Positions 17,073 to 32,815 of a stretch of DNA of 64,000 nt are shown one piece after another. Numbering within the stretch: position 1 is the first letter of the stretch; each line of letters starts with the position of its first letter. Location of the stretch: assembly GCA_043827405.1 (NCBI GenBank), contig JBDRPD010000083.1, forward strand, positions 141,166 to 205,165, in the 5' to 3' direction. Source of the DNA: Elusimicrobiota bacterium. Its GTDB lineage: Bacteria; Elusimicrobiota; Elusimicrobia; UBA1565. The notes below the pieces were generated by a model. It had not been told where the DNA came from. It made no database searches and saw nothing but the letters and a program-made list of their open reading frames with translations. The position numbers and the translations under genes were made by a program.

Positions 17073-17189
17073 CCGTCTTGTGCGCTGTCGCGGCGCCGAG
17101 ATGGAAAACGTATAAAAAACATATACTTTTCTTCCTTTTCGCTTATTAAGGAAAATGGTAACATTGGAAAAGACCGCGCAGCATGCTGT

Positions 17190-17945
17190 GTGCATCACAT
17201 GAGAGCCTTCGCACTTTCCCTGGTTTTTGTTTTCGCTCCCTGCCTCTGGGCGTCCGCTGCCGCCTCGGATGCCGCCGCGCCGGCGGAGGACGCGGAATTC
17301 GGCGACTTTGAGGACGAATTCGGCGGCGCGGCGGAGGCAAAGAAGGTCTTCGATCCGCTGCGGGGCTACAATCGCTTCATGTTCAAGGTGAACGACAAGT
17401 TCTATTATTATTTGCTGCGGCCCCTGGCGCTGCATTACCGTTTCGCCGTTCCGAAGCAGGCGCGCACCGCGGTCAGCAAGTCCTTCCATAACCTGTACTT
17501 CCCGGTACGCTTCGTCAATACGCTGCTGCAGCTGAAATTCAAGAAGGCCGGGATGGAGTTCGGCCGTTTTGTCGTAAACTCCAGCGTCGGCGTCGGGGGC
17601 CTGTTTGATCCCGCGGGCCGCTACCTGAAATGGCGCCCCAGCGACGAGGATTTCGGCCAGACTCTCGGCCATTACGGCATGGGCGGCGGCTTCCCGGTGG
17701 TCCTGCCCCTGCTCGGCCCCAGCAATGTGCGCGACGGCCTGGCGCTGGCGCCGGACGCTCTGCTCAACCCCCTGTCTTATGCCGTCGAGCTGCCGATGAG
17801 CGTCGCCGCCAGGGCGGGGGAAAAATTCAACTATGCGTCGCTCCATCTCGGGGAGTATGAGAGCGTGAAAAAAGATGCGCTCGATCCGTATACTTTCCTC
17901 CGTGACGCCTACGAGCAGAATCGCGACAAGAAAATTCAGGAGTAG
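17190..17945 (+). CDS. mlaA: MlaA/VacJ-family outer-membrane lipoprotein (phospholipid trafficking)
   Basis: Signal peptide, then the VacJ signature DPLRGYNRFMFKVNDKF...GPSNVRDGL. Confidence 0.8.
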   Translation: MHHMRAFALSLVFVFAPCLWASAAASDAAAPAEDAEFGDFEDEFGGAAEAKKVFDPLRGYNRFMFKVNDKFYYYLLRPLALHYRFAVPKQARTAVSKSFHNLYFPVRFVNTLLQLKFKKAGMEFGRFVVNSSVGVGGLFDPAGRYLKWRPSDEDFGQTLGHYGMGGGFPVVLPLLGPSNVRDGLALAPDALLNPLSYAVELPMSVAARAGEKFNYASLHLGEYESVKKDALDPYTFLRDAYEQNRDKKIQE

Positions 17946-17948
17946 CCC

Positions 17949-18587
17949 ATGAACAAGATGATATTCGCCGTGCTCGCTCTTTTGCTGCTGTGCCCGCCGG
18001 TTTTCGCCGACGAAGAGCTGCAGAAGGTCTCCGTTCTCGTCGAGACTTCCGCCAACAAGATCTTGGCGGCGCTCAAGGACAAGACGCTCGAGCGCGAAGC
18101 CAAGCGCAAGCCGGTCATGGCGGAAGTCGACCGGCTTTTCGACATGGAGCGCATGGCGAAGCTGGTGCTGGGACCGACAAATTGGAAGCGGTTCGACGAG
18201 AAGCAGCGCGCGCAGTTTACGGAGCTGTTTGTCCGGCTGCTGAAGGATTCCTATTTTGAGAAGGTCGACCTCCTGTCGGACGAGAAGATCGAGTTCGGCA
18301 AGCCCGCGTGGGAGGAGAAGAAGATCCATATGTCGGCCTTCATCCTGTCGAAGGACAAGCGCTACGAGATGATTTACAAGCTGTACAAGAAGGGCAGCGG
18401 CTGGAAGGCCTACGACGTCGAGATCGAGGGGATCAGCGTGGTGCGGTCCTACCGGTCGCAGTACGAACAGTTTCTCAGGGACGGCACGCCCCAGGAGCTG
18501 CTGGTCAAGATGAAGGAGAAGTCCCTGGCGGCGCCCGCAGCTTTTCAGAAAAAGGACGGCGATAAGCCGCAGGAGAAAAAACCCTGA
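17949..18587 (+). CDS. mlaC: MlaC/Ttg2D-family periplasmic phospholipid-binding protein
   Basis: Signal peptide plus a Tol-tolerance Ttg2D-like sequence (MAKLVLGPTNWKRFDEKQRAQFTELFVRLL...YRSQYEQFL). Confidence 0.8.
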   Translation: MNKMIFAVLALLLLCPPVFADEELQKVSVLVETSANKILAALKDKTLEREAKRKPVMAEVDRLFDMERMAKLVLGPTNWKRFDEKQRAQFTELFVRLLKDSYFEKVDLLSDEKIEFGKPAWEEKKIHMSAFILSKDKRYEMIYKLYKKGSGWKAYDVEIEGISVVRSYRSQYEQFLRDGTPQELLVKMKEKSLAAPAAFQKKDGDKPQEKKP

Positions 18588-18628
18588 TCTCCATCTACGA
18601 ATCCATCGTCCTGCAGCGCGCGAAGGCC

Positions 18629-21070
18629 GTGCTCCTCGTGCTGTTGGCCTGCCTTACCTTTTTCGCCTACTGGATCAAGGACTTCAGGCTCGACGCTTCC
18701 AGCGACTCGCTGGTTCTCGAGCACGACGACGATATCCGCTACTATCGCGAGATCAACGTCCGTTATGAGAGCGGCGATTCCGTCGTTATTACCTATGCGC
18801 CCGAGGCGGATCTTTTCTCCGATCAGTCGCTCGCCCGGCTGACGGCGCTGCGCGACGAGCTGCGCGCTTTCAAGAGCGTGAGCTCGGTCGTTACCCTCCT
18901 GGACGTTCCGCTGCTGAAGAATCCTCCGGGGCTGCTCAATGAGCTCAAGGATAATATTAAGACGCTCGAGTCGCCGGGCGCCGACCGGCGGCTCGCGATT
19001 GCTGAATTTCGCGACAGTCCGATCTACAGCAATATGCTCGTCAGCCCGGATCTGAAGACGACCGTGCTGCAGGTTAACTTTCAGTCCGACAACGACCACG
19101 AGAAGCTCCTGATCCGCCGCTCGGAGCTCCTCGAAAAGAAGTTGGCCGGGCCCCTGCCCGAGGCCGAGCGCGAAGAGCTGGCGCGCATCGAGTTGGAGCA
19201 CCGGCTGTTCAAGGACCAGCGGCGGGCGCAGCGCCATGAGGATATCGCCCGCATTCGCGGCGTTATCAAGCGCTACGGCGCCGACGCCCGGTTGTTCCTC
19301 GGCGGAGTGCCGATGATCGTCGACGATATACTGTCGTTTATCCGCAGCGACCTCAAGATTTTCGGAGCGGGGATGCTCGGCTTCCTGGTGCTGGCGCTAA
19401 GCGTCATCTTCCGCAAGCCGCGCTGGGTGTTTTTGCCGATGCTCTGCTGCGCCGCCTCGACCCTCTCGATGATGGGACTGCTGGGCCTGCTGCGCTGGGA
19501 CGTGACGGTCGTCTCCTCGAACTTCATCTCCCTGCAGCTCATCTTCACCATGTCTTTGGCGATCCATATCGTCGTGCGCTACCGGGAACTGCTTAAGATC
19601 AGCCCGGACGCCGCCAACCGCCGGCTGATCTCCGATGCCGTCGCGTCCACCTTCATTCCCTGTCTCTATGCGGTTCTGACGACGATCGCGGGCTTTACTT
19701 CTCTGGTCGTCTGCGACATCCTGCCCGTCGTCAATTTCGGCTGGATGATGACGCTGGGCCTGGTCGTTTCGCTGCTCGTCACGTTTCTGCTGCTGCCCGC
19801 CTGTCTGGTCCTGATGCCGAAGCATGCGGCCGCAACGGAAAAGGATTTCGGCCTCCCCCTGACGGCCTTCTTCGCCGGTTTAACGGAGAGATACGGGCGG
19901 GCGATACTCGTGGTGAGCGGCTGTGTGGCGGTGGCGGTCGTCGCCGGCATTATGCGGCTGGAAGTGGAAAACAGCTTCATCGATTATTTTAAGGAGTCGA
20001 CCGACATCTACCAAGGGATGCGGTTCATCGACCGGGAGCTCGGCGGAACGACGCCGCTCGACATCATGCTCGATTTCTCGAAGGAGGAGCCGGCTGAAAA
20101 GACGGCGCCGGCGGCGGGCGCTGAGGATGAGGACTTCGACGATTTCGGGGAGTTCGAGGAAGCGGAGAAGGACCCGTCGAAGTACTGGTATACGAAATCC
20201 AAGCTCCAACGCATCAGCGAAGTGCACGACTATCTCGACGGCTTGCCGGCGACCGGCAAAGTCCTGTCTTTGGCGACGCTGTGGAGGACGGCCGGCGAAC
20301 TTAATCAGGGGCGGGAGTTTGATAACTTTACGCTGGCCATCCTGTTCGGACAGATGCCGGATCAGTTCAAGGGCGCACTGGTGACCCCGTACGTCTCGCT
20401 CGAGAACAGCCAGGCGCGCCTGACCACGCGCATTAAGGACTCGATGAAAGATCTTCGCCGCGACGCCCTGATCAAGAAGATCAAGTCGGACCTCGTCAAT
20501 GTATACGGCCTTAAGGAGAGTGAGTTTCGCGTTACGGGCCTGATGGTGCTCTACAATAATATGCTGCAGAGCCTGTTCCGCTCCCAGATTCAGACCATCG
20601 GGCTAACGGTCCTGGCGCTGACGCTGATGTTCCTGGTCCTGTTCCGCTCGCTCAAGATCGCGCTCATCGCGATCTTCCCCAACCTGCTCGCCTCGATGAC
20701 GGTGCTGGGTGTTATGGGGCTCGCCGGGCTGCCCTTGGACGTGATGACGATCACGATCTCGGCCATCAGCGTCGGCATTGCCGTGGATAATACCATCCAC
20801 TACCTGCACCGCTTTCGGCGCGAGATCACTAAGGACTGGGACTACCTGCAAACCATGCACCGCTGCCACGCCAGCATCGGTCACGCCATGTACTATACGT
20901 CGCTGACGATTACGATCGGCTTCTCGATCCTGTCGATGTCCAATTTCATCCCGACGATCCTGTTCGGCCTGCTGACGGCGCTGGCGATGGTGATGGCGCT
21001 GGCCGCCTCGCTGAGCCTGCTGCCCCGGCTCCTGATCATCTTCCGGCCGTTCGGTACGGGCAAGAGCTGA
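18629..21070 (+). CDS. MMPL/RND-superfamily transporter (HpnN-like lipid exporter)
   Basis: Two 6-TM bundles each followed by a large periplasmic loop. RND/MMPL motifs (GVPMIVDDILSFIRSDL; GIAVDNTIHYLHRF). The true start may lie upstream, with an in-frame extension back to about 18584. Confidence 0.8.
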   Translation: MLLVLLACLTFFAYWIKDFRLDASSDSLVLEHDDDIRYYREINVRYESGDSVVITYAPEADLFSDQSLARLTALRDELRAFKSVSSVVTLLDVPLLKNPPGLLNELKDNIKTLESPGADRRLAIAEFRDSPIYSNMLVSPDLKTTVLQVNFQSDNDHEKLLIRRSELLEKKLAGPLPEAEREELARIELEHRLFKDQRRAQRHEDIARIRGVIKRYGADARLFLGGVPMIVDDILSFIRSDLKIFGAGMLGFLVLALSVIFRKPRWVFLPMLCCAASTLSMMGLLGLLRWDVTVVSSNFISLQLIFTMSLAIHIVVRYRELLKISPDAANRRLISDAVASTFIPCLYAVLTTIAGFTSLVVCDILPVVNFGWMMTLGLVVSLLVTFLLLPACLVLMPKHAAATEKDFGLPLTAFFAGLTERYGRAILVVSGCVAVAVVAGIMRLEVENSFIDYFKESTDIYQGMRFIDRELGGTTPLDIMLDFSKEEPAEKTAPAAGAEDEDFDDFGEFEEAEKDPSKYWYTKSKLQRISEVHDYLDGLPATGKVLSLATLWRTAGELNQGREFDNFTLAILFGQMPDQFKGALVTPYVSLENSQARLTTRIKDSMKDLRRDALIKKIKSDLVNVYGLKESEFRVTGLMVLYNNMLQSLFRSQIQTIGLTVLALTLMFLVLFRSLKIALIAIFPNLLASMTVLGVMGLAGLPLDVMTITISAISVGIAVDNTIHYLHRFRREITKDWDYLQTMHRCHASIGHAMYYTSLTITIGFSILSMSNFIPTILFGLLTALAMVMALAASLSLLPRLLIIFRPFGTGKS

Positions 21071-21074
21071 AGTT

Positions 21075-22463
21075 ATGCCGAAGCTGAAATCCATCTATAT
21101 CTGCCAGGAGTGCGGCCAGTCCACGACCAAGTGGGCGGGCCAGTGTCCGGCCTGCCGCGCCTGGAATACTTTGGTCGAGGAGGTCGTCGAAGAGCGGCCC
21201 GCCGCGGCGGTCAAGAGCGCGCCGCGGCCGCTGACGGACTTCACTTCCGAAACGGTCCCCCTGGCCGATGTCCAGGCGGCGGAGGCCGCGCGGACGCCGA
21301 CGCGCCTGAGCGAGCTGGACCGCCTGCTGGGCGGCGGGCTGGTGCCCGGACACGTGCTGCTTCTCGCCGGAGCCCCCGGGATCGGGAAATCCACTTTGAT
21401 GCTGCACGCCGCCGGCAGCCTGGCGGCCGCGGGCAAGGTCCTTTATGTCAGCGGCGAGGAGTCTCTCAGCCAGGTCAGCGGCCGCGCCAAGCGGCTGGGC
21501 CTGCGGGGCGAAGGCATCTACCTGCTGGCGGAGACCGATCTGGTGAAGATTTTGGACGCGATCCGCAAGCATGAGCCGCGCTTTATCGTTATCGATTCGG
21601 TGCAGACCGTCTATCATCCCGAGCTGGGGGGCGGCCCGGGCTCGGTCGGACAGGTGCGCGAGTGCGCCGCCGAGCTCCTGCGGGCGGTCAAGCAGCGGGA
21701 CGCGGCGCTGTTTCTGCTGGGGCATGTCACCAAGGAGGGCAGCGTCGCCGGGCCCAAGGTCCTTGAGCATATCGTCGACACGGTCCTGCAGTTCGACACC
21801 GAAAAGCATCATCAGCTGCGCGTGCTGCGGGCGCAGAAGAACCGCTTCGGACCGACCTCCGAGATCGGAATCTTCGAGATGCGCGAGGACGGGCTGCATG
21901 GGGTAACCGATGCCTCGGCCTTTTTTATTGAGGAACTCGACCGGGCCCCGGTACCCGGGCGCGCGATCTCGGTGGCGGTTGAGGGCTCCCGGCCGATGCT
22001 CGTCGAAGTACAGGCGCTGGTGTCGCCGACCCGCTATCCCTTGCCGCGGCGCATGGCGACCGGTATCGACGTCAACCGCGTGCTGGTGCTGGTAGCGGCG
22101 CTGGAGAAGCATCTGGCGGTGCGCTTTGAGAATCAGGATATCTTCGTGAACCTGGCCGGCGGGGTGCGGCTGCGCGATCCCGCGATTGATTTGGCGGTGT
22201 GCCTGGCGCTTGTTTCCTCGGCGCGCGAGGCCGCGCTGCCGTCGGATCAGGTCTATATCGGCGAGGTCGGCTTGCTGGGCGGCCTCGGCCGGGTCGCTTT
22301 TCTTACCGAGCGGCTGCAGGCGGCCGAGCGCGTCGGCTTTAAGAGCGCGGTCATCCCCAGCCGGTCGCGCAAGGACCTCGCCGGCGGCAAAAGAAAGCTG
22401 CGGCTCGTCCTGCAGGAAGCCGACGACATGGTCGCCGCTGTCGGCCGGGTACTAAAAATATGA
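21075..22463 (+). CDS. radA: DNA repair protein RadA/Sms
   Basis: N-terminal C4 zinc finger (CQECGQSTTKWAGQCPACRAW). Walker A GAPGIGKST, KNRFG motif, Lon-like C-terminal domain. Confidence 0.95.
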   Translation: MPKLKSIYICQECGQSTTKWAGQCPACRAWNTLVEEVVEERPAAAVKSAPRPLTDFTSETVPLADVQAAEAARTPTRLSELDRLLGGGLVPGHVLLLAGAPGIGKSTLMLHAAGSLAAAGKVLYVSGEESLSQVSGRAKRLGLRGEGIYLLAETDLVKILDAIRKHEPRFIVIDSVQTVYHPELGGGPGSVGQVRECAAELLRAVKQRDAALFLLGHVTKEGSVAGPKVLEHIVDTVLQFDTEKHHQLRVLRAQKNRFGPTSEIGIFEMREDGLHGVTDASAFFIEELDRAPVPGRAISVAVEGSRPMLVEVQALVSPTRYPLPRRMATGIDVNRVLVLVAALEKHLAVRFENQDIFVNLAGGVRLRDPAIDLAVCLALVSSAREAALPSDQVYIGEVGLLGGLGRVAFLTERLQAAERVGFKSAVIPSRSRKDLAGGKRKLRLVLQEADDMVAAVGRVLKI

Positions 22464-22473
22464 GGGAGTCATT

Positions 22474-23472
22474 ATGATTACATGGCTGTATCGAGTAATG
22501 GTTTTGGTCGGCTGTCCCGCTCTCGTCTACTTTCAGATCGCCAAAGACCCGCGGGCGGTGCTTATCGGGCTCGGCGTCGGCGTCGTCCTCGTGGTGTTTG
22601 AGCTGCTGCTTGAGAAGATCAGTCTTATTACCTTGGTTTCCGGCGTTCTCGGCGCGAGCGCGGGGCTCATTATGGCGAAGCTCGCCGACTATACGGCCTT
22701 CCAGGTCGGCGACGAGGCCTTTTATCATGCCTGGGGCAAGTATTCCGCGCTGCGCTACTTCGCCTTCGGCATCCTCGGCATGTTCGTGACCATCCGCAAG
22801 ATCCTGCCTGAGATCGATACCCTGGACAAGGATATTCTGGCGATTTCCAAGCGCCGGGGATCCAATATGAAGGTCCTCGATACCAGCGCCATTATCGACG
22901 GCCGGGTCGTGGATATCTGCGAGACCCATTTTATCGGCGGCTCGCTGATCGTTCCGCGCTTTGTCCTTAACGCGCTGCAGCACATGGCGGACTCCGGCGA
23001 CAGCATGAAGCGCGCGCGCGGCCGGCGCGGACTCGACATCCTGGCGCGCCTGCAGGAGAACCCGGAAATCCCGCTCAAGATCATCGACAAGGACGTCCCC
23101 GAGATCGAGGACACGGACGCCAAGGTCGTGCGGCTGGCCAAGCAGCTCGGCGGCAAGGTTTTTACGACGGACTTCAATCTCAATAAGATCGCGTCTCTGG
23201 AGGGCGTGCAGGTCCTCAACGTCAACGACCTGACCAACGCGCTCAAGCCGGTGGTGCTGCCGGGCGAGAAGATGTCGCTGTTTGTCATGAAAGAGGGCAA
23301 GGAGCGCAGCCAGGGGGTCGGCTATCTCGACGACGGAACCATGGTGGTCGTCGAAGACGGCAAGTCGTATATCGGCGAACGCATCGATCTTGTGGTTACT
23401 TCCATCCTGCAGACTTCGCAGGGCCGGATGATATTCGGCAAGTTCCAGGAGCCCGAACAGGAGCCGGCCTAG
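22474..23472 (+). CDS. PIN/TRAM-domain membrane protein (YacL family)
   Basis: Four N-terminal TM helices. PIN domain (VLDTSAIIDGRV...TTDFNLNK). C-terminal TRAM-like beta domain. Typical radA-neighbour position. Confidence 0.75.
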   Translation: MITWLYRVMVLVGCPALVYFQIAKDPRAVLIGLGVGVVLVVFELLLEKISLITLVSGVLGASAGLIMAKLADYTAFQVGDEAFYHAWGKYSALRYFAFGILGMFVTIRKILPEIDTLDKDILAISKRRGSNMKVLDTSAIIDGRVVDICETHFIGGSLIVPRFVLNALQHMADSGDSMKRARGRRGLDILARLQENPEIPLKIIDKDVPEIEDTDAKVVRLAKQLGGKVFTTDFNLNKIASLEGVQVLNVNDLTNALKPVVLPGEKMSLFVMKEGKERSQGVGYLDDGTMVVVEDGKSYIGERIDLVVTSILQTSQGRMIFGKFQEPEQEPA

Positions 23473-25541
23473 CGGTCTTCTTCTTCCGCCGGCAGGTCCG
23501 CCAGCGAGTCGGGGAGCTGCTCCAGCATCCGCAGGAAGTCCTTGACGTCGGGCATCCGCGTCCGGTGGTCGAGGTCGAGCGCGCGCTCAAGCAGCACGGT
23601 CAGGCGCGGGTCCGGCTCGCGTCCGCCGATATGCGGGAGTTCGCCGGTCAGCATCTCGTAGCAGCATAAGCCCAGCGAATAGATGTCCGAGATCGGCGTC
23701 GTCTCTCCGCGCTTAGCCTCGGGCGCCGCGTAGCGTTCGGCGCCTTCCCCGGTGGTGCGCGCCAGCACGAAATCCGAGACCTTGATATAGCCCTTATTGG
23801 TCACGATGATGCGCTCGGGGCTCAAGCCCCCGTGCGCTATGCCGTGATGGTGCGCATGCTCCAGGGCGCGGCAGACGGGGATCAGGATGTCGCGCACCTG
23901 GCCGACCGGGAATTCGCCGACCTCTTCCAGGATGCTGTGAACGCTCTTGCCCGGGGTGTAGCCGTAGACGATATAGAGTCCGGAGGCGATATCGAGAATC
24001 TCGTAGAGGTCGACGATATTGGGATGGCGCAGCTTGGCCGCCGCGCGCGCCTCGTCGAGGCGGCGGGCGCGCTCTTCGGCGGGCTGGGCCTTGCTGCCGG
24101 CGTAGAGCCGCTTGATGAGGGCGGCGCGGCCCAGCGTCTGGTCCTGCGCCTTCCATATTTCGACGGTTCCGTCGTAGCCCATGAAGCGGATTAGATCGTA
24201 CTTCTCGGCGATCGTCATATTGCGCCGCAGCTTCAGCGGCGGCAGCGGGGTGCGTGAGATTATTGTTGTTTTCGTTTCTGTCTTCTGCTTCGGGGCGACG
24301 TTTTCCGTCCAGGAGCGGAGGCGCTTGGCGACGGTTCCGAAGGCGTCCAGCTTCGTCTGCTTCGGGTCTTTACGGCGGCGCGTCAGCATCACGATCGCCG
24401 CCATGAGAGCGACTCCGAGCAGCGCCCCTAGTATCATGAAAAGCGCGTTGGTGCCCGAGCCGCCCTGCGCTGTCGCCGCCGCCGGCGCCTCCTCGTCGCG
24501 CAGCAGCTTCCAGCTGCTGCCTTCGGCATCGAACAGGTCGCGGCTGTCGGCGTATTTTAGGTAGCGCAAAAAGCGAGCCGGGTCCAGCTTGGCGGCGATG
24601 CGCAGGTTCTGCATCCGCAGCTCTTTGTCTCCGCTCTGCTCATGCGCCAGCGCCAGCAGGAAGAAGGCGTCCGCGTTATGCGGTGCCAACGCGGTCGCAT
24701 AAGTTGCGCTTTCCACCGCTTCGGCGAAGCGTTTCTGCTCCAGCAGGCTTTGCGTCAGGATGATGACCGCTTTGATGTCGCCGGTGCCGCCGACCATGGC
24801 GGAGCGCGCCGCGGCCTCGGCCTCGGGGAGGCGGTTGCCGCGCAGCAGCTTCTCCGCCTGACGCAGCGGGGCGCCGCGCACGGCGTTGGTCGCCGCAGCG
24901 CGGGGCAAATCCTTTTCTGTCGCCGGGCGGGGCGGGGGTTCGGCGAATTTCTTAAACGCCGGCCAATCCGACACGGAGGAGGTCGCCGGTATGCTCGCCG
25001 GCGATGCGTCCCCGGCGCTTTTCGGGCTCTTGCGCGCGGGTTCGCGCCGCGTCGCGCGCGCGCCCGCGTCCTGATTATTATCCTGGTCGCCGCCGGATTT
25101 TCTGAACTTCCAGTGATCCCGAGTGCTTATGTCGGGCCGCGGGTCGCGCTTGAGGCTCTGCGCCGGGGGCTTGACGTCGAGGTTGTTGTAGCCCGCGGGG
25201 CGGGTATAGGATACGTCGCCCGCGGGCTTCTGCTCTACGATCGGCTTTTGCGCGTTGAGGTTCTGCAGCATGAGGTCGATCTGTTCGCGCTGTTCGGGGG
25301 GGAGAGATTCATTGGCGGAGATCTTCTTCAGGGTATCGATCTGCCGCATCAGCAGTACCGCGTCGTCCATCTGCTTTTGGCCGTCCTGCATGGAATATTC
25401 GTAGTCCTTGTCCTTGCGCTTGCCGGATTTCTGCTTATCGCCGGACGCTTTCTGCGGCGGCGGGTCGGCGTTCTGCGGCGCGGCGGCGATCAGCAGCGAC
25501 GCGGCGAGAAGGCCGGCGGAGCAGCGGAGGAAGCTCCTCAT
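23469..25541 (-). CDS. Signal peptide + TPR repeats + TM helix + C-terminal Ser/Thr-kinase-like domain with a degenerate catalytic loop (predicted pseudokinase)
   Basis: Kinase subdomains are recognisable (AALIK; E in alpha-C; DFV for DFG; AAPE; DIYSLG). The HRDLKPEN motif is replaced by IAHGGLSPER, so the catalytic Asp, Lys and Asn are lost. TPR-like helices in the N-terminal periplasmic half. TM ALFMILGALLGVALMAAIVML. Confidence 0.75.
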   Translation of the reverse strand: MRSFLRCSAGLLAASLLIAAAPQNADPPPQKASGDKQKSGKRKDKDYEYSMQDGQKQMDDAVLLMRQIDTLKKISANESLPPEQREQIDLMLQNLNAQKPIVEQKPAGDVSYTRPAGYNNLDVKPPAQSLKRDPRPDISTRDHWKFRKSGGDQDNNQDAGARATRREPARKSPKSAGDASPASIPATSSVSDWPAFKKFAEPPPRPATEKDLPRAAATNAVRGAPLRQAEKLLRGNRLPEAEAAARSAMVGGTGDIKAVIILTQSLLEQKRFAEAVESATYATALAPHNADAFFLLALAHEQSGDKELRMQNLRIAAKLDPARFLRYLKYADSRDLFDAEGSSWKLLRDEEAPAAATAQGGSGTNALFMILGALLGVALMAAIVMLTRRRKDPKQTKLDAFGTVAKRLRSWTENVAPKQKTETKTTIISRTPLPPLKLRRNMTIAEKYDLIRFMGYDGTVEIWKAQDQTLGRAALIKRLYAGSKAQPAEERARRLDEARAAAKLRHPNIVDLYEILDIASGLYIVYGYTPGKSVHSILEEVGEFPVGQVRDILIPVCRALEHAHHHGIAHGGLSPERIIVTNKGYIKVSDFVLARTTGEGAERYAAPEAKRGETTPISDIYSLGLCCYEMLTGELPHIGGREPDPRLTVLLERALDLDHRTRMPDVKDFLRMLEQLPDSLADLPAEEEDR

Positions 25542-26938
25542 TTCTTTTTGTGGTAAAAGTCCTTTCCGGGCTGGATCTTAAGCATCATGCCCGGGCGCAG
25601 GAGGCGCGGGTTATGGATATTGTTCTGCTGCATGATATTTTTGACCGTGGTCCGGTAGCTGCGGGCGATTTTTCCGAGGTAGTCTCCGCGGCGGACCTTG
25701 TAGCGGACGAGCTCCGGCCCGGGGTTCCAATCCTTCACTGCGGCAAGTTTTTTCAGGAACTCCTCCTTGACGCCCTGCGGGATGCGCAGCGGAAAGCCGG
25801 GGCGGTTGCGGGGCGTGCACCAGGCGCGGATATGCGGATTGAGCCGCTGGATCACTTCCTTGGTTGTCCCGGCGCACTTGGCCGCGATGCCGAGATCGAG
25901 GTCGCGGTCGAGCTCCACGATGTCGTAGGGTTCGGGTTCCTCGTAGTTGGGCTTGATGCCGTAGTTTTCCGGAGCTTCGCCGATGAGCACGCAGGCCATG
26001 AATTTCGGCACATAGTTGTGCGTCTCCTGCGGCAGGACCTTGCGGTCCGCCAGCTTGCCGAAGTCGGCCGAGTTGGAAAACTTAAGATCGCGGCCGATGC
26101 CGTTGAGCCCCCGGTTGTAGGCGGCCAGCGCCAGGTGCCAGTCCTTGAACCACTGGTGCAGGTCGCTCAGATGACGGATCGCGGCCTTGGTCGCCTTCTC
26201 CGGGTCGAACCGTTCGTCGACCCAGTACGAAACCTCCAGGCCGTAGGCGCGCGCGGTGAAGGGCATGAACTGCCATAAGCCCGCGGCCCCGGAGCGGGAG
26301 ACCGCGTTGCGCTTGTATTCGCTCTCGGTCATGACGAGGTAGAAGAGCTCGCGCGGCAGGCCCGCTTGGCGCAGCTCGGACTCGATGAAAGCGCGGTAGC
26401 GTCCGGAGCGTTCCAGCGCTTCACGGACGGAATCGGGCCGCTTTTCAGTGTAGAGCTGGATAAACTTCTTGGTGATCTCGTTTTCCGGATCGATCTCGAT
26501 GGTATGCTGCTGGGAGGAAATGGGAGCGGCCGGCGCGGGCGGGGTCTCCTCGAGCACTTCAGCGGAAACCTGCAGGTCGGAGGGGTACTCGGTCTGTGTT
26601 TCGCCCGCCTCCCAGGTCCGGACCTTCTCGAGCATGCTCAGAAAATCGGCCTTAAGCTCGATCGTCAGCTGGTCCTCCTCCAGCGAGGAGGTCAGCAGGG
26701 CAAAGGCTTTCTTGACGGCCGCCCGCGCCTGGCGGACCTTGCCTTCCTGAAAGAGCTTGATCCCCTGTTCGTATTGGCTCTCCGCCACCCGCAGCTGTTC
26801 GAGGAGCAGCGCGTCCGGATCGGCGTTCTCTTCCTGTCGGTCGGAGGCGTAGACGGGCGCCTCGGGCGGCGAGGTGTCGGGCGGCAATGCCCGCGCCGCG
26901 GGAACGAGCAGCAGCAGCAGCGCGGCGAACGGTTTCAC
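25538..26938 (-). CDS. MltD-like membrane-bound lytic murein transglycosylase (SLT domain + C-terminal LysM)
   Basis: SLT motif ESEYKRNAVSRSGAAGLWQFMPFTA. C-terminal LysM YKVRRGDYLGKIARSYRTTVKNIMQQN. Confidence 0.85.
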   Translation of the reverse strand: MKPFAALLLLLVPAARALPPDTSPPEAPVYASDRQEENADPDALLLEQLRVAESQYEQGIKLFQEGKVRQARAAVKKAFALLTSSLEEDQLTIELKADFLSMLEKVRTWEAGETQTEYPSDLQVSAEVLEETPPAPAAPISSQQHTIEIDPENEITKKFIQLYTEKRPDSVREALERSGRYRAFIESELRQAGLPRELFYLVMTESEYKRNAVSRSGAAGLWQFMPFTARAYGLEVSYWVDERFDPEKATKAAIRHLSDLHQWFKDWHLALAAYNRGLNGIGRDLKFSNSADFGKLADRKVLPQETHNYVPKFMACVLIGEAPENYGIKPNYEEPEPYDIVELDRDLDLGIAAKCAGTTKEVIQRLNPHIRAWCTPRNRPGFPLRIPQGVKEEFLKKLAAVKDWNPGPELVRYKVRRGDYLGKIARSYRTTVKNIMQQNNIHNPRLLRPGMMLKIQPGKDFYHKKK

Positions 26939-28078
26939 CTAGGCCAGCTTCTTGCCGCAGCCGCCGCAGAACTTCACGGTCGGTCCCGCTTGCGCGCCGC
27001 ACTTCGGGCAGGCGATCGAGCCGAGTCCCTTGCCGCAGTTCTGGCAGAACTTGGCGCCGGCGGCGACGTCGGCCTTGCAGCCGGGGCATTTGGCTGTCGG
27101 CGCGACGACCGGCTTGCCGCATTCGGGGCAGAATTTCGCGGTGGCCGGCACCTGGGCGTTGCACTGGTCGTTGGTGCAGGAAGCCGTCTGCTGCGGCTGC
27201 GTCGAGGCGGCCGAGCCCATGACGCCCGCCATCATCCCGCCCATGCCGGCGCCGGCGCCCAGGCCCATGCCCAGGCCCATGCCGCCGCCCATCATGCCGC
27301 CGCCCTCGTTTTTGGCCGCGCCCTCCATGGTGTCGAAGGTGCGCTTCATGCGGTAGTTCTGGCCGCCGAGGATGTCGATTTCGGCCCGCTCGGAAAGGGC
27401 TTTCTTCAGGCGCTTGACGGTATCGTCGTCGTCCGGGACGTTGACCGACTGCAGCATGAAGTTGACCAGCTGGATGCCGAAGTTCGCGAAATCCTTGCCG
27501 ATCTTCTTATGCAGATCTTCGGAGAGGTCCTCGAGGTAAGCGCTGATTTCGAGCAGGTTGATCTTCTTGCGGATGATCGTCTCCGCGATGTAGTCCTTGG
27601 CCTTGGTCAGGATGATGCCGCGGAAGTAGTCGGTCAGGGCGTTGACCGTGAACTCGTTCTGCGTACCCGCCAGCTGGACCACGAACTTGCGCGCGTCCGT
27701 GACGCGCACGCCGAACTGCCCGAAAGCGCGTATCGGCAGGAAGATGTTGTACTTTGGGTCCAGGATCGGGATCGGGGATTTTGTACCCCACTTCACATCG
27801 AGCTTGGTGGCCTTGTTGATGAAGTATATCTCGGCCGCGAACGGAGTCTCGCCGCCGAACGGGGCCTTGATCAGGCGCCGGAGGAGCGGAATGTTCAGGG
27901 TGCGCAGAGTATGCGTCCCGGGGCCGAGCAGATCAAGCGCCTGGCCGCCCTTGAAGAACAGGGCCTCCTGGGATTGGTTGACGATGACCTGCGTGCCCCA
28001 GGTCAGGTCGTCCGGAGGATGCCGCCAAACCAAGATGTCCGCCGGGCCGTCAAATTTTACTCTGTCGATTATCGCCAT
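26939..28078 (-). CDS. SPFH/band-7 superfamily protein of the COG4260 (virion-core-like) type with four C-terminal zinc-ribbon motifs
   Basis: N-terminal MAIIDRVKFDG...WGTQVIVNQSQEALFFKGG pattern typical of COG4260 SPFH proteins. C-terminal CxxC pairs (CTNDQC...CPECG, CPGCK...CQNCG, CPKCG...CGGCG). GGAGGG RBS before the ATG at 28078. Confidence 0.75.
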   Translation of the reverse strand: MAIIDRVKFDGPADILVWRHPPDDLTWGTQVIVNQSQEALFFKGGQALDLLGPGTHTLRTLNIPLLRRLIKAPFGGETPFAAEIYFINKATKLDVKWGTKSPIPILDPKYNIFLPIRAFGQFGVRVTDARKFVVQLAGTQNEFTVNALTDYFRGIILTKAKDYIAETIIRKKINLLEISAYLEDLSEDLHKKIGKDFANFGIQLVNFMLQSVNVPDDDDTVKRLKKALSERAEIDILGGQNYRMKRTFDTMEGAAKNEGGGMMGGGMGLGMGLGAGAGMGGMMAGVMGSAASTQPQQTASCTNDQCNAQVPATAKFCPECGKPVVAPTAKCPGCKADVAAGAKFCQNCGKGLGSIACPKCGAQAGPTVKFCGGCGKKLA

Positions 28079-28139
28079 ATTCCCTCCGCAGAAAAGCAAA
28101 GTTAGCTTAAGACTCCGTCCGACGGTTGTCAAGCCCTCA

Positions 28140-29597
28140 TTATTTCGCGGGCCGGACGATGGGCGGGTCGCCGGCCTCTATGATCTCGACGGTCGCGCCC
28201 TTCTCGATCGCGCCGCTGTCGGCGAGCGCCTCGACAATCTGGGTGCCGAACTGCACCCGGCCTTCGGGTTTGAGCGGGCCCAGAGCGAGACCACGGCGCC
28301 CGACGGCCAGCTCGCCCTCCTCCGGAGTGTCGAGCGGCGCGGTGCTCCCCGCGTCGGTGTCGAGCGGGCCGCGATTGAACATCGGCAGGCGGGGGATCAT
28401 GAACAGCAGCGATATGATGCCCGCGACCCCGCCGGCGCCCGCGGCGGCCAGGACCCAGAGAACTTCGCGCAGGCGGTCCCACTCCCAAGGAGCGTGCGGC
28501 ACGACAAAAGGGACGATCATGAGATAGAATCCGATCATCAGGCACAGGAAGCCCCCGATGCCTGCGAGCCCGAAGCCCGGCACCACGAAGATCTCGAGCG
28601 CGATCAGAAACAGTCCGGCCAGGACCAGCAGCAGATCGAACCAGCCCGCCATGTCCGCCAGGTAATGGCCCCAGAAGACCACGATGAAGCAGGCGATGCC
28701 GGCGGCGCCCATCCAGCCGAAGCCGGGCATATGCATCTCGCCGGAGATCAGCATGAAGCCGAGAAATACCAGCAGACTCGTCGCGGCGCTGCCGGTGATG
28801 ATATCAATGAACTTTTCCAGCCCGGTCTTGCGGGCATCGATCAGCGTCGGGTCCGGGATGTTTTCCCGGCGCAGCGCATACGTGATCGAGTCGGCCGGCT
28901 CGGCGAGCCCGTAGCGGATCGCCCGGCGGGCGCTGAGGTTCAGGAGCTTCCCCTTGGCGATGACCAGCTCGGGCTCGCCGCGGATTCGCCCTTCCTTCTT
29001 CAGGCGTTCCAGCTCCGGCGCGGTGACGAAGTGCGTTTCGCCGCCGGCGGTGACGCGATGAACTTCCAGGTCCTTGTCGACCATGGCGGCGGCGAGCGCC
29101 GCCGGGTAATTGTTGCGCTCGGCAAGGGCGCGGAACTTCGCCCGCAGGGCGGAGATGTGCTTCTCTCCCGCCGCCTCCGTTTTGCCGCCGCCGCTCATCA
29201 CGGGAGCGGCGGAGCCGATCGAGGCGCTTGGGGCCATGTAGATTTTGCCGCAGGCGAGCGAGATCAGCGCCCCGGCCGACCAGGCCTTGTCCTCTACCCA
29301 GGCGAATACCGGGATATTGGGCTCCTGCGCCGCGCGGGCGATGTCGAGCGCCGCGTCCACGCGCCCGCCGAAAGTGTCGATGCGCAGGACAACGGCGCGC
29401 GCGTCTTCCCTGCCGGCGAGCGAGCGCCGGACATAGGAGGCGAGGCCATGGGTAATCTCGCCGTCGATATGGATGACCAGAACCTTGCTGCCGGCGGTCG
29501 TGGGAGCGGGTCCGCGGCTGGCGGCGAAGCCGACGGCCGCATAGAGCAGGCCGGCGGCCAATGCGGCCAGCGATCTTGTAAGCGGTTGCGCGTTCAT
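28140..29597 (-). CDS. NfeD-family membrane-bound ClpP-class serine protease with C-terminal OB-fold
   Basis: Signal or TM start MNAQPLTRSLAALAAGLLYAAV. ClpP-like region VLVIHIDGEITHG...DTFGGRVDAALDI...KAWSAGALISLA. Several TM helices, then a C-terminal beta domain. Classic partner of SPFH proteins. ATG overlaps the upstream stop (ATGA). Confidence 0.8.
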   Translation of the reverse strand: MNAQPLTRSLAALAAGLLYAAVGFAASRGPAPTTAGSKVLVIHIDGEITHGLASYVRRSLAGREDARAVVLRIDTFGGRVDAALDIARAAQEPNIPVFAWVEDKAWSAGALISLACGKIYMAPSASIGSAAPVMSGGGKTEAAGEKHISALRAKFRALAERNNYPAALAAAMVDKDLEVHRVTAGGETHFVTAPELERLKKEGRIRGEPELVIAKGKLLNLSARRAIRYGLAEPADSITYALRRENIPDPTLIDARKTGLEKFIDIITGSAATSLLVFLGFMLISGEMHMPGFGWMGAAGIACFIVVFWGHYLADMAGWFDLLLVLAGLFLIALEIFVVPGFGLAGIGGFLCLMIGFYLMIVPFVVPHAPWEWDRLREVLWVLAAAGAGGVAGIISLLFMIPRLPMFNRGPLDTDAGSTAPLDTPEEGELAVGRRGLALGPLKPEGRVQFGTQIVEALADSGAIEKGATVEIIEAGDPPIVRPAK

Positions 29598-31486
29598 GCC
29601 TGAAGGTCCTGCTGCGCCTGTTGGTAGAGGAGCTTGCGTTCCGCCGCGATCATGCCGCGGATGTCCTGCGCGTTCATCTTGAGCTGCCGTCCGAAGGCCA
29701 GCAGGGTGTTCATCTCCGGCCGGGATATCTCGCCGTCGGCGAGGCTCATTTGGATGACGCCGCGGAGGAATATCCGAGCCTCCTCGGGCGTCTTCGGCGC
29801 CGGCACTTCCAGGTGTCCGCTGCGGGCCGCGCTGAGCAGCCCGTCGAGCTTGACCCGCGGTATCGTATGCTTCCTGGCATAGGCCTGCGCGAACGCCAGC
29901 TCCCGCTGGTCGATGCGGCCGTCGAGGATCATCGCCCCGACGAGCACGGCCAGCGCCTGTATGGGCGGCATGGCGCCCGACCAGCCGGCGTCCGCGCCGC
30001 GCGCCGCAACGCTCTCGGCGGCCAGCAGCGGAGTCGGCTGGCGCCACTGGCCGTGGGGCATGATGCCGGTCAGGACCCAGCGGCGGCTGCCGTCGTTGGC
30101 CGGCGAGCCGCAGAACTCGCAGGCGGCCTGCCGGCGCTCCGCGGGCGGCGCGCCGCAGCTCGCGCACAGCAGCGAGCGCAGCCCGGAGCCGGCGTCGGTC
30201 TTGGCGGCGGCCTGGCGGCTAAGGATGAAAACGTGGTGGTTGAGCACCGAGCCCTGAGCGGCGGCTTCGCCGTTATGGACCGCGAATTTCTCGCCGGACC
30301 ATTTGACGAGGACGTGGGCCTTGTCGTCGGGCCGGCCCGCCTCTATCGCGAGGATATCGACGGCGCCCACGGCGGCGCCGCGGTACAGGGCGCGGGTGCG
30401 CGACTGGCTTTCCCGGTGCGCGGCGACCAGCGCCTCCGCGGCTACCGGGACCAGCGAGGAGGCCTCCGGCTCCCAGTGCGCCATCTGCCAGCGCCAGAAG
30501 ACGGCCGAGGCGCGGTCCTCCAGGAACTGAACGTTGAGCGCGGGATCGCGCTGCTTGATCTCCACCAGCCCCGGAATCTGCGCCTCCGAGGTGCGGATGC
30601 GCCATTCGCAGGCTTGGGTGATTTCGGCGAGCACCCAGTCATACTCGCCGGAGCTGACCCAGGAGCCGCAGGCCGCGCATTTGGCGGCGTCGGCGATATC
30701 CAGCGGCGCCCCGCAGTTCGGGCAGAACCCTTCAAGCAGTCCGGGTTTTTTCAGGGTCTGCGCGCCCGGGCGCCGCAGGAAGGACCAGACCTCGATAAAC
30801 TCTTCTTCTTTCCCGGAGCGGTTCTTGACGACGCTGTCGTCGTCCAGCCGCACGTCCTGGTCCACCGCCGAGGCGCGAACGCTTACATGGAGCGTGTCGA
30901 AGTGCGCGTCCGATTCGACATGGACCACGTCGGCTTTGAGAACCCGGACCTCGTGCATGCGGTTGCGGATGCCCATCGCCCGCTGCATGCGGATATAAAT
31001 GGCGAAGCGCTCGTTGATCCCGTCGGAGATGAAGGCGCGCGCCGGGCCCATGTCTTGGTTCGACCAGGCCTCCTGGATGCGCAGGAAGGCCTTCTGCACC
31101 CGGTCGAGAAAGGCGGGCGTGCTGAAGCCCGGGTCGCGCTGATGGATCTTCGCGATGCCGGCCATGATGGCATGGGACTGGGCGCGCGCCGCGCCCTGCA
31201 CGATGGTCCGCTGCGTGCGGCCCTCCCCGTTGATGGCGCCGAATACGCGCAGCATGACGAAGACGCCGATGACGGCGAGCCAGATGACGTTTTCCGTCCG
31301 GCTCATGCGCCGGCTGGAACGGTAGCCGCCGTAGCTGCCGCCGCTGAAACTTCCGCCGCTGAAACCACCGCCGCTGAAGCCTCCGCCGCCGCCCGAATAG
31401 CCGCCGCCGCCGCCGGCGCGGGCGAAGACGATCGGGGGCGCGAACAGGGCGAGCAGAAACAGGGCCAGCGCGAGGCGGCGGATCAC
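29594..31486 (-). CDS. Membrane protein with Gly-rich N-terminus, Tim44-like domain(s), two CxxC zinc ribbons and a C-terminal TerB-like domain
   Basis: Signal-anchor MIRRLALALFLLALFAPPIVFA, then GGGGGYSGGGGGFSGG. Tim44-like region FLDRVQKAFLRIQEAWSNQD...HFDTLHVSV. CPNCG...CAACG and CASCG...CEFCG zinc ribbons. C-terminal TerB-like helices (ILDGRIDQRELAFAQAY...SLADGEISRPEMNTLLAFGRQL). Confidence 0.7.
   Translation of the reverse strand: MIRRLALALFLLALFAPPIVFARAGGGGGYSGGGGGFSGGGFSGGSFSGGSYGGYRSSRRMSRTENVIWLAVIGVFVMLRVFGAINGEGRTQRTIVQGAARAQSHAIMAGIAKIHQRDPGFSTPAFLDRVQKAFLRIQEAWSNQDMGPARAFISDGINERFAIYIRMQRAMGIRNRMHEVRVLKADVVHVESDAHFDTLHVSVRASAVDQDVRLDDDSVVKNRSGKEEEFIEVWSFLRRPGAQTLKKPGLLEGFCPNCGAPLDIADAAKCAACGSWVSSGEYDWVLAEITQACEWRIRTSEAQIPGLVEIKQRDPALNVQFLEDRASAVFWRWQMAHWEPEASSLVPVAAEALVAAHRESQSRTRALYRGAAVGAVDILAIEAGRPDDKAHVLVKWSGEKFAVHNGEAAAQGSVLNHHVFILSRQAAAKTDAGSGLRSLLCASCGAPPAERRQAACEFCGSPANDGSRRWVLTGIMPHGQWRQPTPLLAAESVAARGADAGWSGAMPPIQALAVLVGAMILDGRIDQRELAFAQAYARKHTIPRVKLDGLLSAARSGHLEVPAPKTPEEARIFLRGVIQMSLADGEISRPEMNTLLAFGRQLKMNAQDIRGMIAAERKLLYQQAQQDLQA
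31306..31417 (-). repeat. GGC-rich simple repeat encoding the Gly/Ser-rich segment (GGGGGYSGGGGGFSGGGFSGGSFSGGSYGGY)
   Basis: Runs of gccgcc / ggcggc trinucleotide repeats visible in the DNA. Confidence 0.7.
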
Positions 31487-32748
31487 CGCGGGTTCCCGCC
31501 TTGCTGTTGCTGCTGCTGCCCCATGACCTGATTGAGCATTTCCATGCTTTGACCGAGCATTTCGTTGACGCCGCGCGTGGCTTCGATCATCTCCTTAACG
31601 GTGCCGGCGCGGTCCGCCTTGGGGATATTGGGCAGGGTCTCGACCAATGACTGGCGGATGGGCCCGCTCATTTTCGGCCACTCCTTCACCAGCAGGCTGC
31701 TGGTGCGGCTGTCGAGGAGCAGCAGGGTTTCGTTGGGAGGATGCTGCATTTTCTGGTAGCGCTGCATCTCCTGGATGACGCCCATGGGATTGGTCTGCGC
31801 CTGGTGCATCGCCTGCTGGAAGTCGTTGTTGGCCTGCTCGTCGCCCAGCGCCTGCATCATGGCCGAGGCCGCCTGGATGGCCTGCTGGGGGTTCATCGGC
31901 TGCTGCTGTTGCTGCGTTCCGATGACGGCGGGCGGCCCGCCGAAGGAGGAGCTCTGCTGTGTTGAGATCTGTCCCTGGAAGTTGCCGAGCGACGACTTGA
32001 GGCGCTGGGCGGCTATGGCCGCCGAGATGCTGAGCAGCAGCCAGAAGACCGTTAAGGCGCCGAAGACCAGCCAGGCCTTCTTCTTGTCGACCCGGTGCAG
32101 GCCCGCCGCCGCATGAACGGCAAGGTAGAGCCCGCATAGCTGGGGGATGATCGCTCCGGCATAGGGGATGAGGCCCAGAAGAGAACTAATAGGCATCAGC
32201 GCCGCCATGGCGGCGAAGGCGCCGAAGCTGCCGTTGTAGGAGACGCCGCCGCCGAGGACTTTGCACAGGACGTGGAAGATCGCGGCGCCGATGAAGCTCA
32301 TGATGATCGCCACGATCGGCAGCATGAACAGCCCGCCGGTGGCGGCAGCGATCGTGAAGGGGACCGACTGGGTCTTGGCGTAAACCGTGAAGGCGGACAG
32401 CGGGGCGCTGATCAGCGCCCACAGGATGATGACGACCAGCGGCGGGCCGAAGCCGCCGTTGGGGTTGATGCGGGAAAAGAAAAGCGTGGGCTGCTGGGCC
32501 ATGAATACGGCATTGGCGATCAGCTTGCCGGGCTTGAAATCGATAAACCCGCCGACATCGGCTTCCCGGCCGGGGCCGATGGGCGCCGCGGCGGGCGGCG
32601 GCGGGACGTTTTGTGCCATGACGGCCCGGACCGCTTCCTCGATAGCTTCGGGGGGAAAGCCGTTGCCGGCCAGCGCCGTCTTGAGGCTTTCGATGGGGTA
32701 GCTGCCCATGTTCTGGCGCAGATAGTCGACGATTCTCTGGTCGGGCAT
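31483..32748 (-). CDS. Yip1-domain multi-pass membrane protein with a Gln-rich C-terminal extension
   Basis: Five-TM Yip1-like core (LVVIILWALISAPLSAF...LPIVAIIMSFIGAAIFHVL...). Tail rich in Q (TQQQQQPMNPQQ...QQQQQQGGNPR). The ATG at 32748 is preferred over the TTG at 32784. 4-nt overlap with the downstream gene. Confidence 0.65.
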   Translation of the reverse strand: MPDQRIVDYLRQNMGSYPIESLKTALAGNGFPPEAIEEAVRAVMAQNVPPPPAAAPIGPGREADVGGFIDFKPGKLIANAVFMAQQPTLFFSRINPNGGFGPPLVVIILWALISAPLSAFTVYAKTQSVPFTIAAATGGLFMLPIVAIIMSFIGAAIFHVLCKVLGGGVSYNGSFGAFAAMAALMPISSLLGLIPYAGAIIPQLCGLYLAVHAAAGLHRVDKKKAWLVFGALTVFWLLLSISAAIAAQRLKSSLGNFQGQISTQQSSSFGGPPAVIGTQQQQQPMNPQQAIQAASAMMQALGDEQANNDFQQAMHQAQTNPMGVIQEMQRYQKMQHPPNETLLLLDSRTSSLLVKEWPKMSGPIRQSLVETLPNIPKADRAGTVKEMIEATRGVNEMLGQSMEMLNQVMGQQQQQQGGNPR

Positions 32749-32815
32749 AATAGGCAATATACCGCGCTTTGACGACGGAAGCAAGACCCGGCGGGCCCCC
32801 TAGCGTATTTCCTAT

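Follow-up and report, generated by a model that had tools for sequence, protein, structure and literature searches.

The DNA analysed here, a stretch of 64,000 nucleotides from contig JBDRPD010000083.1 of an Elusimicrobiota bacterium (assembly GCA_043827405.1; hereafter the window), carries a gene for a protein of receptor-like layout whose kinase fold is, with high confidence, a conserved and catalytically dead pseudokinase. The open reading frame (ORF) at 23469..25541 of the reverse strand is a genuine gene with an ATG start and a product of 690 residues, and the identical protein is present both in NCBI ('MAG: protein kinase [Elusimicrobiota bacterium]') and in a Logan assembly. A sequence-only reading of this DNA had described a signal peptide, periplasmic tetratricopeptide repeats (TPRs), a single transmembrane (TM) helix and a cytoplasmic kinase fold deprived of its catalytic-loop residues. 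The layout of the gene and of its neighbours is given in Table 1.

Topology and kinase fold

The protein contains two hydrophobic segments only. The first (residues 3-21) resembles a signal peptide and is followed by PQNA/D, where the precursor is probably cleaved, while the second (residues 365-388) is a strong TM segment. Because the latter is followed by RRRKDPK, the positive-inside rule places residues 26-364 in the periplasm and the kinase fold in the cytoplasm, in agreement with the sequence-only reading. A lipoprotein is ruled out, as there is no lipobox and an arginine precedes the sole cysteine of the signal peptide.

An AlphaFold2 model built on a 57-sequence family alignment (mean predicted local distance difference test score, pLDDT, 74.9) is confident for a hairpin at residues 48-97, a seven-helix repeat at 215-330, the TM helix and the kinase domain at 445-680, and predicts disorder for residues 101-215 and for the cytoplasmic juxtamembrane linker. 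TPR profiles stay below threshold in the periplasmic part (Pfam TPR_16, 22.5 bits against 32.7; TPR_19, 19 against 25). In the model, however, the seven-helix unit reaches a pLDDT of 87-98, and a separate ectodomain model fits the 3-TPR peptide-binding modules of consensus CTPR3, CHIP and OGT at 1.4-2.0 Å, with Foldseek alignments to CTPR3, the CHIP TPR domain and OGT that span 113-119 columns (E about 1e-4). The predicted structure thus confirms the periplasmic TPRs that the sequence profiles do not.

The Pfam Pkinase profile (PF00069) covers residues 461-640 at E = 7.5e-27 and 94.8 bits, the cut-off being 31.7. By sequence, Mycobacterium tuberculosis PknA and PknB are the nearest relatives of solved structure (HMMER, E about 2e-24), and the best Foldseek matches of the kinase domain, most of which is modelled with pLDDT above 90, are Stk1, PknB and PknA at target-normalised TM-scores of 0.74-0.79. 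The alignment to PknA and PknB runs without gaps through the catalytic loop, setting 'iaHGGlSPeRiivT' over 'lvHRDvKPgNiliT', and pairs DFV with DFG, ALIK with VAVK and APE with APE. Since it has no gap, a register shift is ruled out: the protein truly lacks the catalytic Asp, the Lys of the catalytic loop and the Asn that binds Mg, and no displaced Asp takes their place. The replacement of HRDLKPEN by HGGLSPER and of DFG by DFV, which had been noticed beforehand together with the retained VAIK lysine and APE motif, is therefore real. A further lesion had escaped that reading: the Gly-rich loop GxGxxG has become GYDGTV, Asp having replaced the second Gly and Val the third. Such residues are expected to disfavour phosphate binding.

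The losses thus comprise the catalytic base Asp, the loop Lys and Asn, the Gly of DFG, two Gly-rich-loop glycines and the long activation loop. What is kept is the structural core, namely H570 (HRD-His), F591 (DFG-Phe), the Glu of APE with its partner Arg662 and, for the most part, the beta-3 Lys and the DFG-Asp. HRD-His and DFG-Phe are canonical regulatory-spine positions. From the joint loss of the catalytic Asp, the loop Lys and Asn and the Gly-rich-loop glycines, and with the adenosine triphosphate (ATP) pocket judged from sequence, we infer that the domain has no phosphotransfer activity. The 2025 bacterial kinase atlas defines a pseudokinase as a kinase fold without at least one of VAIK-Lys, HRD-Asp and DFG-Asp. 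By this definition the window domain is a pseudokinase, as the HRD-Asp position is Gly572, with Lys477 and Asp590 kept.

Table 1. Features of the pseudokinase gene and of the gene cluster that it closes, with window coordinates.
Feature	Position	Strand	Basis or remark
Whole gene, receptor-topology pseudokinase, 690 residues	23469..25541	-	Pfam match, NCBI identical protein
Sec-type signal peptide, residues 1-25 (MRSFLR, hydrophobic core, PQNA/D)	25467..25541	-	Hydrophobicity; cleavage inferred
Periplasmic helical hairpin, residues 48-97	25251..25400	-	AlphaFold2, pLDDT 89-96
Short clade-A motif 'V.Y.RP.G[YF]', residues 108-119	25185..25220	-	Orthologue alignment, 42% mean identity
Pro/Lys/Arg/Ser-rich linker, predicted disordered, residues 120-214	24900..25184	-	pLDDT <50; 12% orthologue identity
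Periplasmic 3-TPR unit with capping helix, residues 215-330	24552..24899	-	AlphaFold2 and Foldseek
Periplasmic membrane-proximal segment, residues 331-364, motif 'A..G..LFDP...DSW.LL'	24450..24551	-	Family alignment
Single TM helix, residues 365-388, then cytoplasmic RRRKDPK	24378..24449	-	Hydrophobicity, AlphaFold2
Basic cytoplasmic juxtamembrane linker, residues 389-445, low predicted order	24207..24377	-	Sequence, AlphaFold2
Hanks-type pseudokinase domain, residues 446-680, full bilobal fold	23502..24206	-	Pfam, AlphaFold2, Foldseek
Degenerate Gly-rich loop GYDGTV, residues 455-460	24162..24179	-	Alignment
Lys477, beta-3 'VAIK' lysine, kept	24111..24113	-	Alignment
Catalytic loop HGGLSPER for HRDLKPxN, residues 570-577	23811..23834	-	Alignment
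Activation segment DFVLARTTGEGAERYAAPE, 19 residues (590-608), DFV to invariant APE	23718..23774	-	Alignment
Secreted MltD-like lytic transglycosylase, SLT and LysM	25538..26938	-	Directly upstream of pseudokinase
YdjI-like SPFH protein: Band_7_1, Gly/Met-rich stretch, C-terminal zinc ribbons	26939..28078	-	
NfeD-family membrane protein	28140..29597	-	
Tim44-like protein, zinc ribbon, weak TerB-like C-terminus	29594..31486	-	
Yip1-domain membrane protein, first of cluster	31483..32748	-	

Conservation within Elusimicrobia

An exhaustive phmmer search over 1.84 billion representatives, together with the loci compared, yielded about 18 Elusimicrobia orthologues of 36-61% identity, which constitute the HGGLSPER-type pseudokinase group (clade A). 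The proteins P0121-P0132 and P0134-P0136 align over their full length (E = 1e-149 to 1e-69, 39-61% identity), as do the orthologue translated from locus L003 and the cluster members P0274 and P0281, and in all full-length orthologues the N-terminus is equivalent to the signal peptide. A metagenome scan with the clade alignment, in which generic kinase peptides served as patterns, added at least one further clade-A locus (L093). Word-index searches with the full protein, the N-terminal 445 residues or the clade alignment returned the query and generic kinases at about 30% identity only. They missed the 36-61% orthologues even with the clade profile because abundant generic kinases filled the candidate list, and on their own would have wrongly suggested an orphan.

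The altered catalytic loop is a fixed property of the clade, reading HG[GAL]L[STA]P[ED]R in all orthologues. In a motif count over 17 aligned sequences, H570, G571 and R577, the last standing at the Asn position, are invariant; the HRD-Asp position is Gly in 15, Ala in one and Leu in one, and the catalytic-loop Lys is replaced by Ser, Thr or Ala. Position 576 is always acidic (Glu or Asp). DFG has become DF[VL] in 16 of the 17, with its Asp kept in 15, and F591 and A606-P607-E608 do not vary, while R662 is found in 16/17. The Gly-rich loop nearly always reads G.DGTV (Asp457 in 15 of 16 orthologues) and the beta-3 lysine is kept in 14 of 16 clade members. The alpha-C Glu, listed among the retained residues in the sequence-only reading, does not hold as a clade feature, being Glu in eight of 17 sequences and acidic of either kind in 12.

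A sequencing or assembly artefact, or a gene inactivated recently, would suit a metagenome-assembled source whose protein found no close relative in the word-index searches. Its probability is nevertheless negligible. No orthologue has an intact HRD, and about 18 independent orthologue clusters, drawn from different samples and assemblies, carry the same substitutions; the reading frame is unbroken, conservation within the protein is highest in the kinase domain, and the NCBI and Logan assemblies contain the identical product. Sequencing error and recent decay are thus refuted by conservation among the orthologues. Mean identity is 57% in the pseudokinase domain, 32% in the TPR domain and 12-26% in the linkers, TM helix and hairpin, and within the N-terminal half the short motif 'V.Y.RP.G[YF]' is the best conserved element. 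That conservation peaks in the pseudokinase domain indicates purifying selection for a role other than catalysis.

The orthologues belong to a wider family defined here, the Elusimicrobia 'TPR-TM-kinase' family, by a signal peptide, TPRs, the LFDP motif, a single TM helix and a C-terminal kinase fold. More than 40 further matches show the same order of signal peptide, long variable region, TPRs, 'A..G..LFDP...DSW.LL', one TM helix and C-terminal kinase. The window protein has each of these features, aligns over residues about 225-680 with more than 40 members, and carries the family-wide motif as DLFDAEGSSWKLL within residues 331-364. All members that carry a source name are Elusimicrobia. The majority of the further matches (clade B) have canonical GxGxxG, VAxK, HRDLKPxN and DFG motifs with a long activation-loop insert and are, judged by these residues, presumably active. 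Other lineages are degenerate in different ways (HRN.KPSN/DFA, HKNLRLDN/EFS and HGELRPSS/DFG). In a neighbour-joining tree built from kinase domains, with N-terminal kinases as outgroups, the family forms a single group, within which clade A is monophyletic and clade B makes up the other main branch; as the tree carries no support values, the branching of the degenerate lineages is tentative. The catalytic losses are fixed throughout clade A, which is monophyletic and has presumably active kinases of identical architecture as its sister group. Clade A therefore represents a conserved pseudokinase and not a decaying gene.

Active-type and dead members coexist. Assembly GCA_003505215.1 encodes both a clade-A pseudokinase (locus L088) and an active-type clade-B receptor kinase (L092), and in L083 the pseudokinase gene (P0122) is immediately preceded by a receptor kinase gene of the active type that has one in-frame stop, so that active and dead paralogues stand in tandem. 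The active-type gene of L083 (positions 1-1149; contig JAZHBU011592289.1) encodes the end of the TPRs, the TM helix, GEGGMG, HRDLKPAN and DFG, and its stop falls between the TM helix and the kinase domain; it could reflect a sequencing error, a pseudogene or recoding. The clade-B member in L092 (P0283; DNYI01000242.1) adjoins genes for a polysaccharide deacetylase, an ABC transporter, a SurA-like chaperone, a bactofilin and an M23 peptidase, which hints that the active branch is also tied to the cell envelope. Five other proteins among the best kinase-domain matches (P0133, P0137, P0140, P0141 and P0149), of 1536-2592 residues with 4-7 kinase-like stretches each, look like multi-kinase-domain giants.

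Two alternative readings concern the activity of the domain. The first is a kinase that still works through a displaced catalytic residue, in the manner of WNK with its relocated Lys. The fold, HRD-His, DFG-Phe, beta-3 Lys, DFG-Asp and APE are intact, and some annotated pseudokinases are reported to have proved active (PMC9403797). This alternative is nonetheless most improbable: the catalytic Asp, the loop Lys and Asn and the Gly-rich-loop glycines were lost together and the losses are fixed across the clade, no nearby compensating Asp appears in the PknA/PknB alignment, and the activation segment, of 19 residues in the clade (17 in one member), is shorter than in all but one active paralogue (24-104 residues in the active relatives, all but one of them 39-104).

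The second, which is the chief rival, holds that the domain is an enzyme put to a new use or a switch gated by nucleotide. Nucleotide would be bound through Lys477, Asp590 and Arg577, either for a reaction other than phosphotransfer, like the AMPylation of SelO or the glutamylation of SidJ, or for a conformational change. In its favour, the beta-3 Lys and the DFG-Asp are kept in the proportions given above, and the invariant Arg577 beside an acidic residue at 576 suggests a loop that was re-tooled rather than eroded. Retention of the lysine is also unusual, as all seven published bacterial pseudokinase families show its loss, and an Arg-lined, metal-independent mode of ATP binding has been proposed for DLHK and ULK4. 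Set against this are the Gly-rich loop, in which a conserved Asp and a Val stand for the second and third Gly, an alpha-C Glu present in 8/17 only and a catalytic loop with no candidate base. A repurposed domain or switch is, on balance, unlikely.

Gene neighbourhood and proposed function

The sequence-only reading had made the gene the last of an SPFH/NfeD/TerB operon. Its place at the end of six co-directional genes and the SPFH gene stand, but the reading had overlooked the MltD-like gene. NfeD, which L085 and L093 lack, is not a fixed part of the cluster, and the TerB similarity of the Tim44-like protein falls below threshold (E = 0.0018, 19 bits against 24.4). The six window genes are tightly packed, and the MltD-like gene ends and the pseudokinase gene begins within a shared 4 bp (ATGA). 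The order SPFH, MltD, pseudokinase recurs in six lineages (the window, L003, L085/86, L087, L090/91 and L093), whose pseudokinases are only 36-47% identical. The slot between the Tim44-like and SPFH genes is variable: NfeD is present in the window, absent from the otherwise syntenic L085/86 and L093, and replaced by a small TPR protein in L091.

The SPFH protein has three C-terminal zinc ribbons and a Gly/Met-rich low-complexity stretch, and so shares with Bacillus subtilis YdjI the architecture described for that protein (soluble SPFH domain, low-complexity stretch, C-terminal zinc finger); the likeness is one of architecture. YdjI links PspA to the membrane, and SPFH proteins of its type act in membrane-stress scaffolding (PMC8581546). 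Loss of its membrane partners YdjG or YdjH gives an alkali-stress cell-shape defect that has been linked to delocalised peptidoglycan-synthesis machinery (PMC8581546). Homologues of the window SPFH protein, at 43-49% identity, occur in genomes of Spirochaetota, Clostridia, Verrucomicrobia (Pedosphaera) and Bacteroidales. The Tim44-like gene recurs upstream of SPFH in most related Elusimicrobia loci; its product combines a start resembling a signal peptide or TM segment, a Gly/Ser/Tyr repeat of the (GGGYSGG)n type, an internal zinc ribbon and a weak TerB/DUF533-like C-terminus, which is an unusual set of domains.

At its 3' end the pseudokinase gene overlaps a convergent PIN/TRAM gene (22474-23472, forward strand) by 4 bp (23469-23472), and there is therefore no room for an intergenic terminator. 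Most orthologous loci have an ispDF fusion gene between the pseudokinase and PIN/TRAM genes. A promoter and terminator scan of 22-34 kb gave counts near those of shuffled sequence and no informative terminator between the cluster genes, and a sigma-70-like match just upstream of the Yip1 gene (32775-32747) was not significant. With a G+C content of about 63%, the region 15900-32800 contains many long spurious ORFs on both strands that are antisense to or overlap real genes, for example 24642-25556 (forward strand, 304 residues), inside the pseudokinase gene, and 26366-28105 (forward strand, 579 residues); the mechanical NfeD ORF (675 residues from a GTG) exceeds the called gene by 190 residues.

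The protein most likely takes part in envelope signalling without catalysis, as a transmembrane adaptor or an allosteric partner, a role close to the scaffolding or signalling, rather than phosphotransfer, that the sequence-only reading had envisaged and that is still the best supported. The joint reading, that a conserved dead pseudokinase of receptor topology acts as a transmembrane adaptor, is favoured by a modest measure. A more specific model is tentative and would run as follows. On the periplasmic side, the TPR and juxtamembrane module would have a protein or peptide of that compartment as its ligand; the best candidate is the MltD-like lytic transglycosylase, which is co-encoded and putatively coupled in translation, or one of its reaction products. 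On the cytoplasmic side, the pseudokinase domain would then pass on the state of the ectodomain by docking onto a partner. Most plausibly this would be an active receptor kinase paralogue from the same family, for which the pseudokinase would be an allosteric activator or regulator, or a substrate. The conserved Thr596 and Thr597 of the short activation segment would be candidate phosphorylation sites. Alternatively, the partner could be the YdjI-like SPFH/zinc-ribbon membrane-stress scaffold encoded two genes upstream. In either case the output may be the regulation of cell-envelope maintenance.

Several observations weigh against the adaptor role or its specific form. The linkage to SPFH and MltD is not universal: the closest orthologue (P0121) has a divergent ceramidase-family gene upstream, P0281 sits between SbcCD and trehalose-metabolism genes, and L002 and L004 carry SPFH-MltD with no kinase gene after it. 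The six trio loci share a much wider synteny on both sides (Yip1 through DnaB), which makes inherited gene order a live alternative to functional coupling, and the gap between the MltD and pseudokinase genes is 50-157 bp in the five orthologous trio loci. No second kinase or active paralogue is encoded within the 64-kb window. The ectodomain fold search returned generic or designed TPRs, CHIP and OGT, with no envelope adaptor of the NlpI, LpoA or CpoB type standing out; because these matches are generic, no partner can be inferred from the structure. Lastly, the retained beta-3 Lys (14/16) and DFG-Asp (15/17) and the invariant Arg at the Asn position leave room for nucleotide binding or a non-canonical activity.

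Some of these points would also fit a role unrelated to SPFH and MltD, in which the adjacency is inherited synteny and the protein is a decoy or dimerisation partner in an Elusimicrobia receptor-kinase network that responds to an unrelated periplasmic cue. Besides the long-range synteny and the two loci where SPFH-MltD stands without a kinase gene, the contexts differ in L082, L083 and L088/89, and the active paralogue P0283 lies in an unrelated neighbourhood. Yet the trio persists across six lineages whose pseudokinases have diverged to the extent given above, and in the window the MltD and pseudokinase genes overlap stop to start. An unrelated role is accordingly judged to be a minority prospect, about as doubtful as the nucleotide-gated switch.

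Comparison with known kinases and pseudokinases

Bacterial Hanks-type pseudokinases are known but barely studied, and the family described here unites two rarities in a phylum-specific manner: a eukaryote-like receptor orientation and a conserved dead-kinase branch beside active paralogues. A literature search on Elusimicrobia kinases with TPRs returned nothing relevant and, as far as the searched literature shows, the receptor-topology pseudokinase family is apparently undescribed. As public databases label these proteins 'protein kinase' or 'hypothetical protein', their catalytic status is mis-annotated.

Among catalytically competent relatives, the PASTA-type kinases PknB, PknA, Stk1 and StkP are likewise single-pass proteins that join an extracytoplasmic sensor to a cytoplasmic kinase fold, and they act in cell-wall control. 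PknB has its kinase at the N-terminus and a PASTA sensor at the C-terminus, whereas the window protein has the opposite orientation, a TPR sensor and no catalytic residues. NCBIfam NF033483 (PknB_PASTA_kin) scores 142.8 bits against a cut-off of 450, matching the kinase part only (profile positions 3-210 of 563) and no PASTA. In the 2025 atlas, the order TM before kinase, typical of eukaryotic receptors, is given for only one of 42 bacterial kinase families, CCM1. The window protein shares this order. CCM1 is described there as canonical, occurs in Chloroflexota, Cyanobacteria and other phyla and has FHA or PQQ-dehydrogenase partners, in contrast to a dead kinase with TPRs from Elusimicrobia.

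The atlas recognises seven bacterial pseudokinase families (ActPs1, ActPs2, ActPs3, GLW, DLHK, CP1 and DYD), all reported from Actinobacteria, Proteobacteria, Cyanobacteria or Firmicutes. Five of these have the VAIK-Lys substituted in every member, CP1 in 34% and DYD in 60%, and in the families whose topology was compared the TM segment is C-terminal to the domain or absent; in the window protein it is N-terminal. Judged by these descriptions, membership in any of the seven is rejected, as Lys477 is kept (14/16 orthologues), the loop reads HGGLSPER with DFV, and Elusimicrobia are not among the host taxa listed. The pattern of loss is itself distinctive, with the catalytic loop and the Gly-rich loop gone and the Lys and DFG-Asp kept.

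The M. tuberculosis MviN (MurJ) pseudokinase, a member of ActPs3, is also a membrane-tethered Hanks-fold pseudokinase with a shortened activation loop. It works as a phospho-dependent scaffold: once phosphorylated by PknB it recruits FhaA, whereby peptidoglycan synthesis is regulated. ActPs3 is actinobacterial, fused to a flippase, with a TM segment C-terminal to the domain and all three motifs lost (VALT / LSIDHPSR / Y--), whereas the window protein keeps the beta-3 Lys and DFG-Asp and has its TM helix on the N-terminal side. EssB/YukC of type VIIb secretion is another single-pass membrane pseudokinase, which serves as a non-catalytic scaffold and dimerisation hub; it is found in Firmicutes, has an N-terminal pseudokinase with all motifs degraded (LDMR / YTFVLAPD / TRG) and is part of a secretion machine. 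As a scaffold linked to cell-wall metabolism, MviN is the closest functional analogue, and EssB/YukC is also among the best. The window locus contains no type VII secretion genes.

In eukaryotes, receptor pseudokinases are paired with active receptors, as HER3 is with EGFR or HER2 and plant NFR5 with NFR1. Their layout of ectodomain, single TM helix and dead kinase is that of the window protein, and in GCA_003505215.1 an active paralogue is encoded in the same genome. Pairing of the window pseudokinase with an active paralogue is hypothetical. If such pairing, or a coupling to the MltD/SPFH module, is real, the family would be a convergent bacterial counterpart of receptor/pseudoreceptor signalling and would offer a way into envelope homeostasis in a phylum that is poorly known and mostly uncultured. 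The boldest version, argued by analogy, is a long shot: that Elusimicrobia independently evolved a eukaryotic-type receptor-kinase system of N-out TPR receptors, in which the pseudokinase would heterodimerise with active paralogues and control them allosterically while its ectodomain reads peptidoglycan turnover through the MltD-like enzyme. Such a pairing of receptor kinase and pseudokinase would be the first in bacteria, and it would open a new path by which a diderm could signal cell-wall remodelling to its cytoplasm. The likeness to HER3 and NFR5 is convergent and not homologous, the kinase domain being nearest to the bacterial Hanks kinases.

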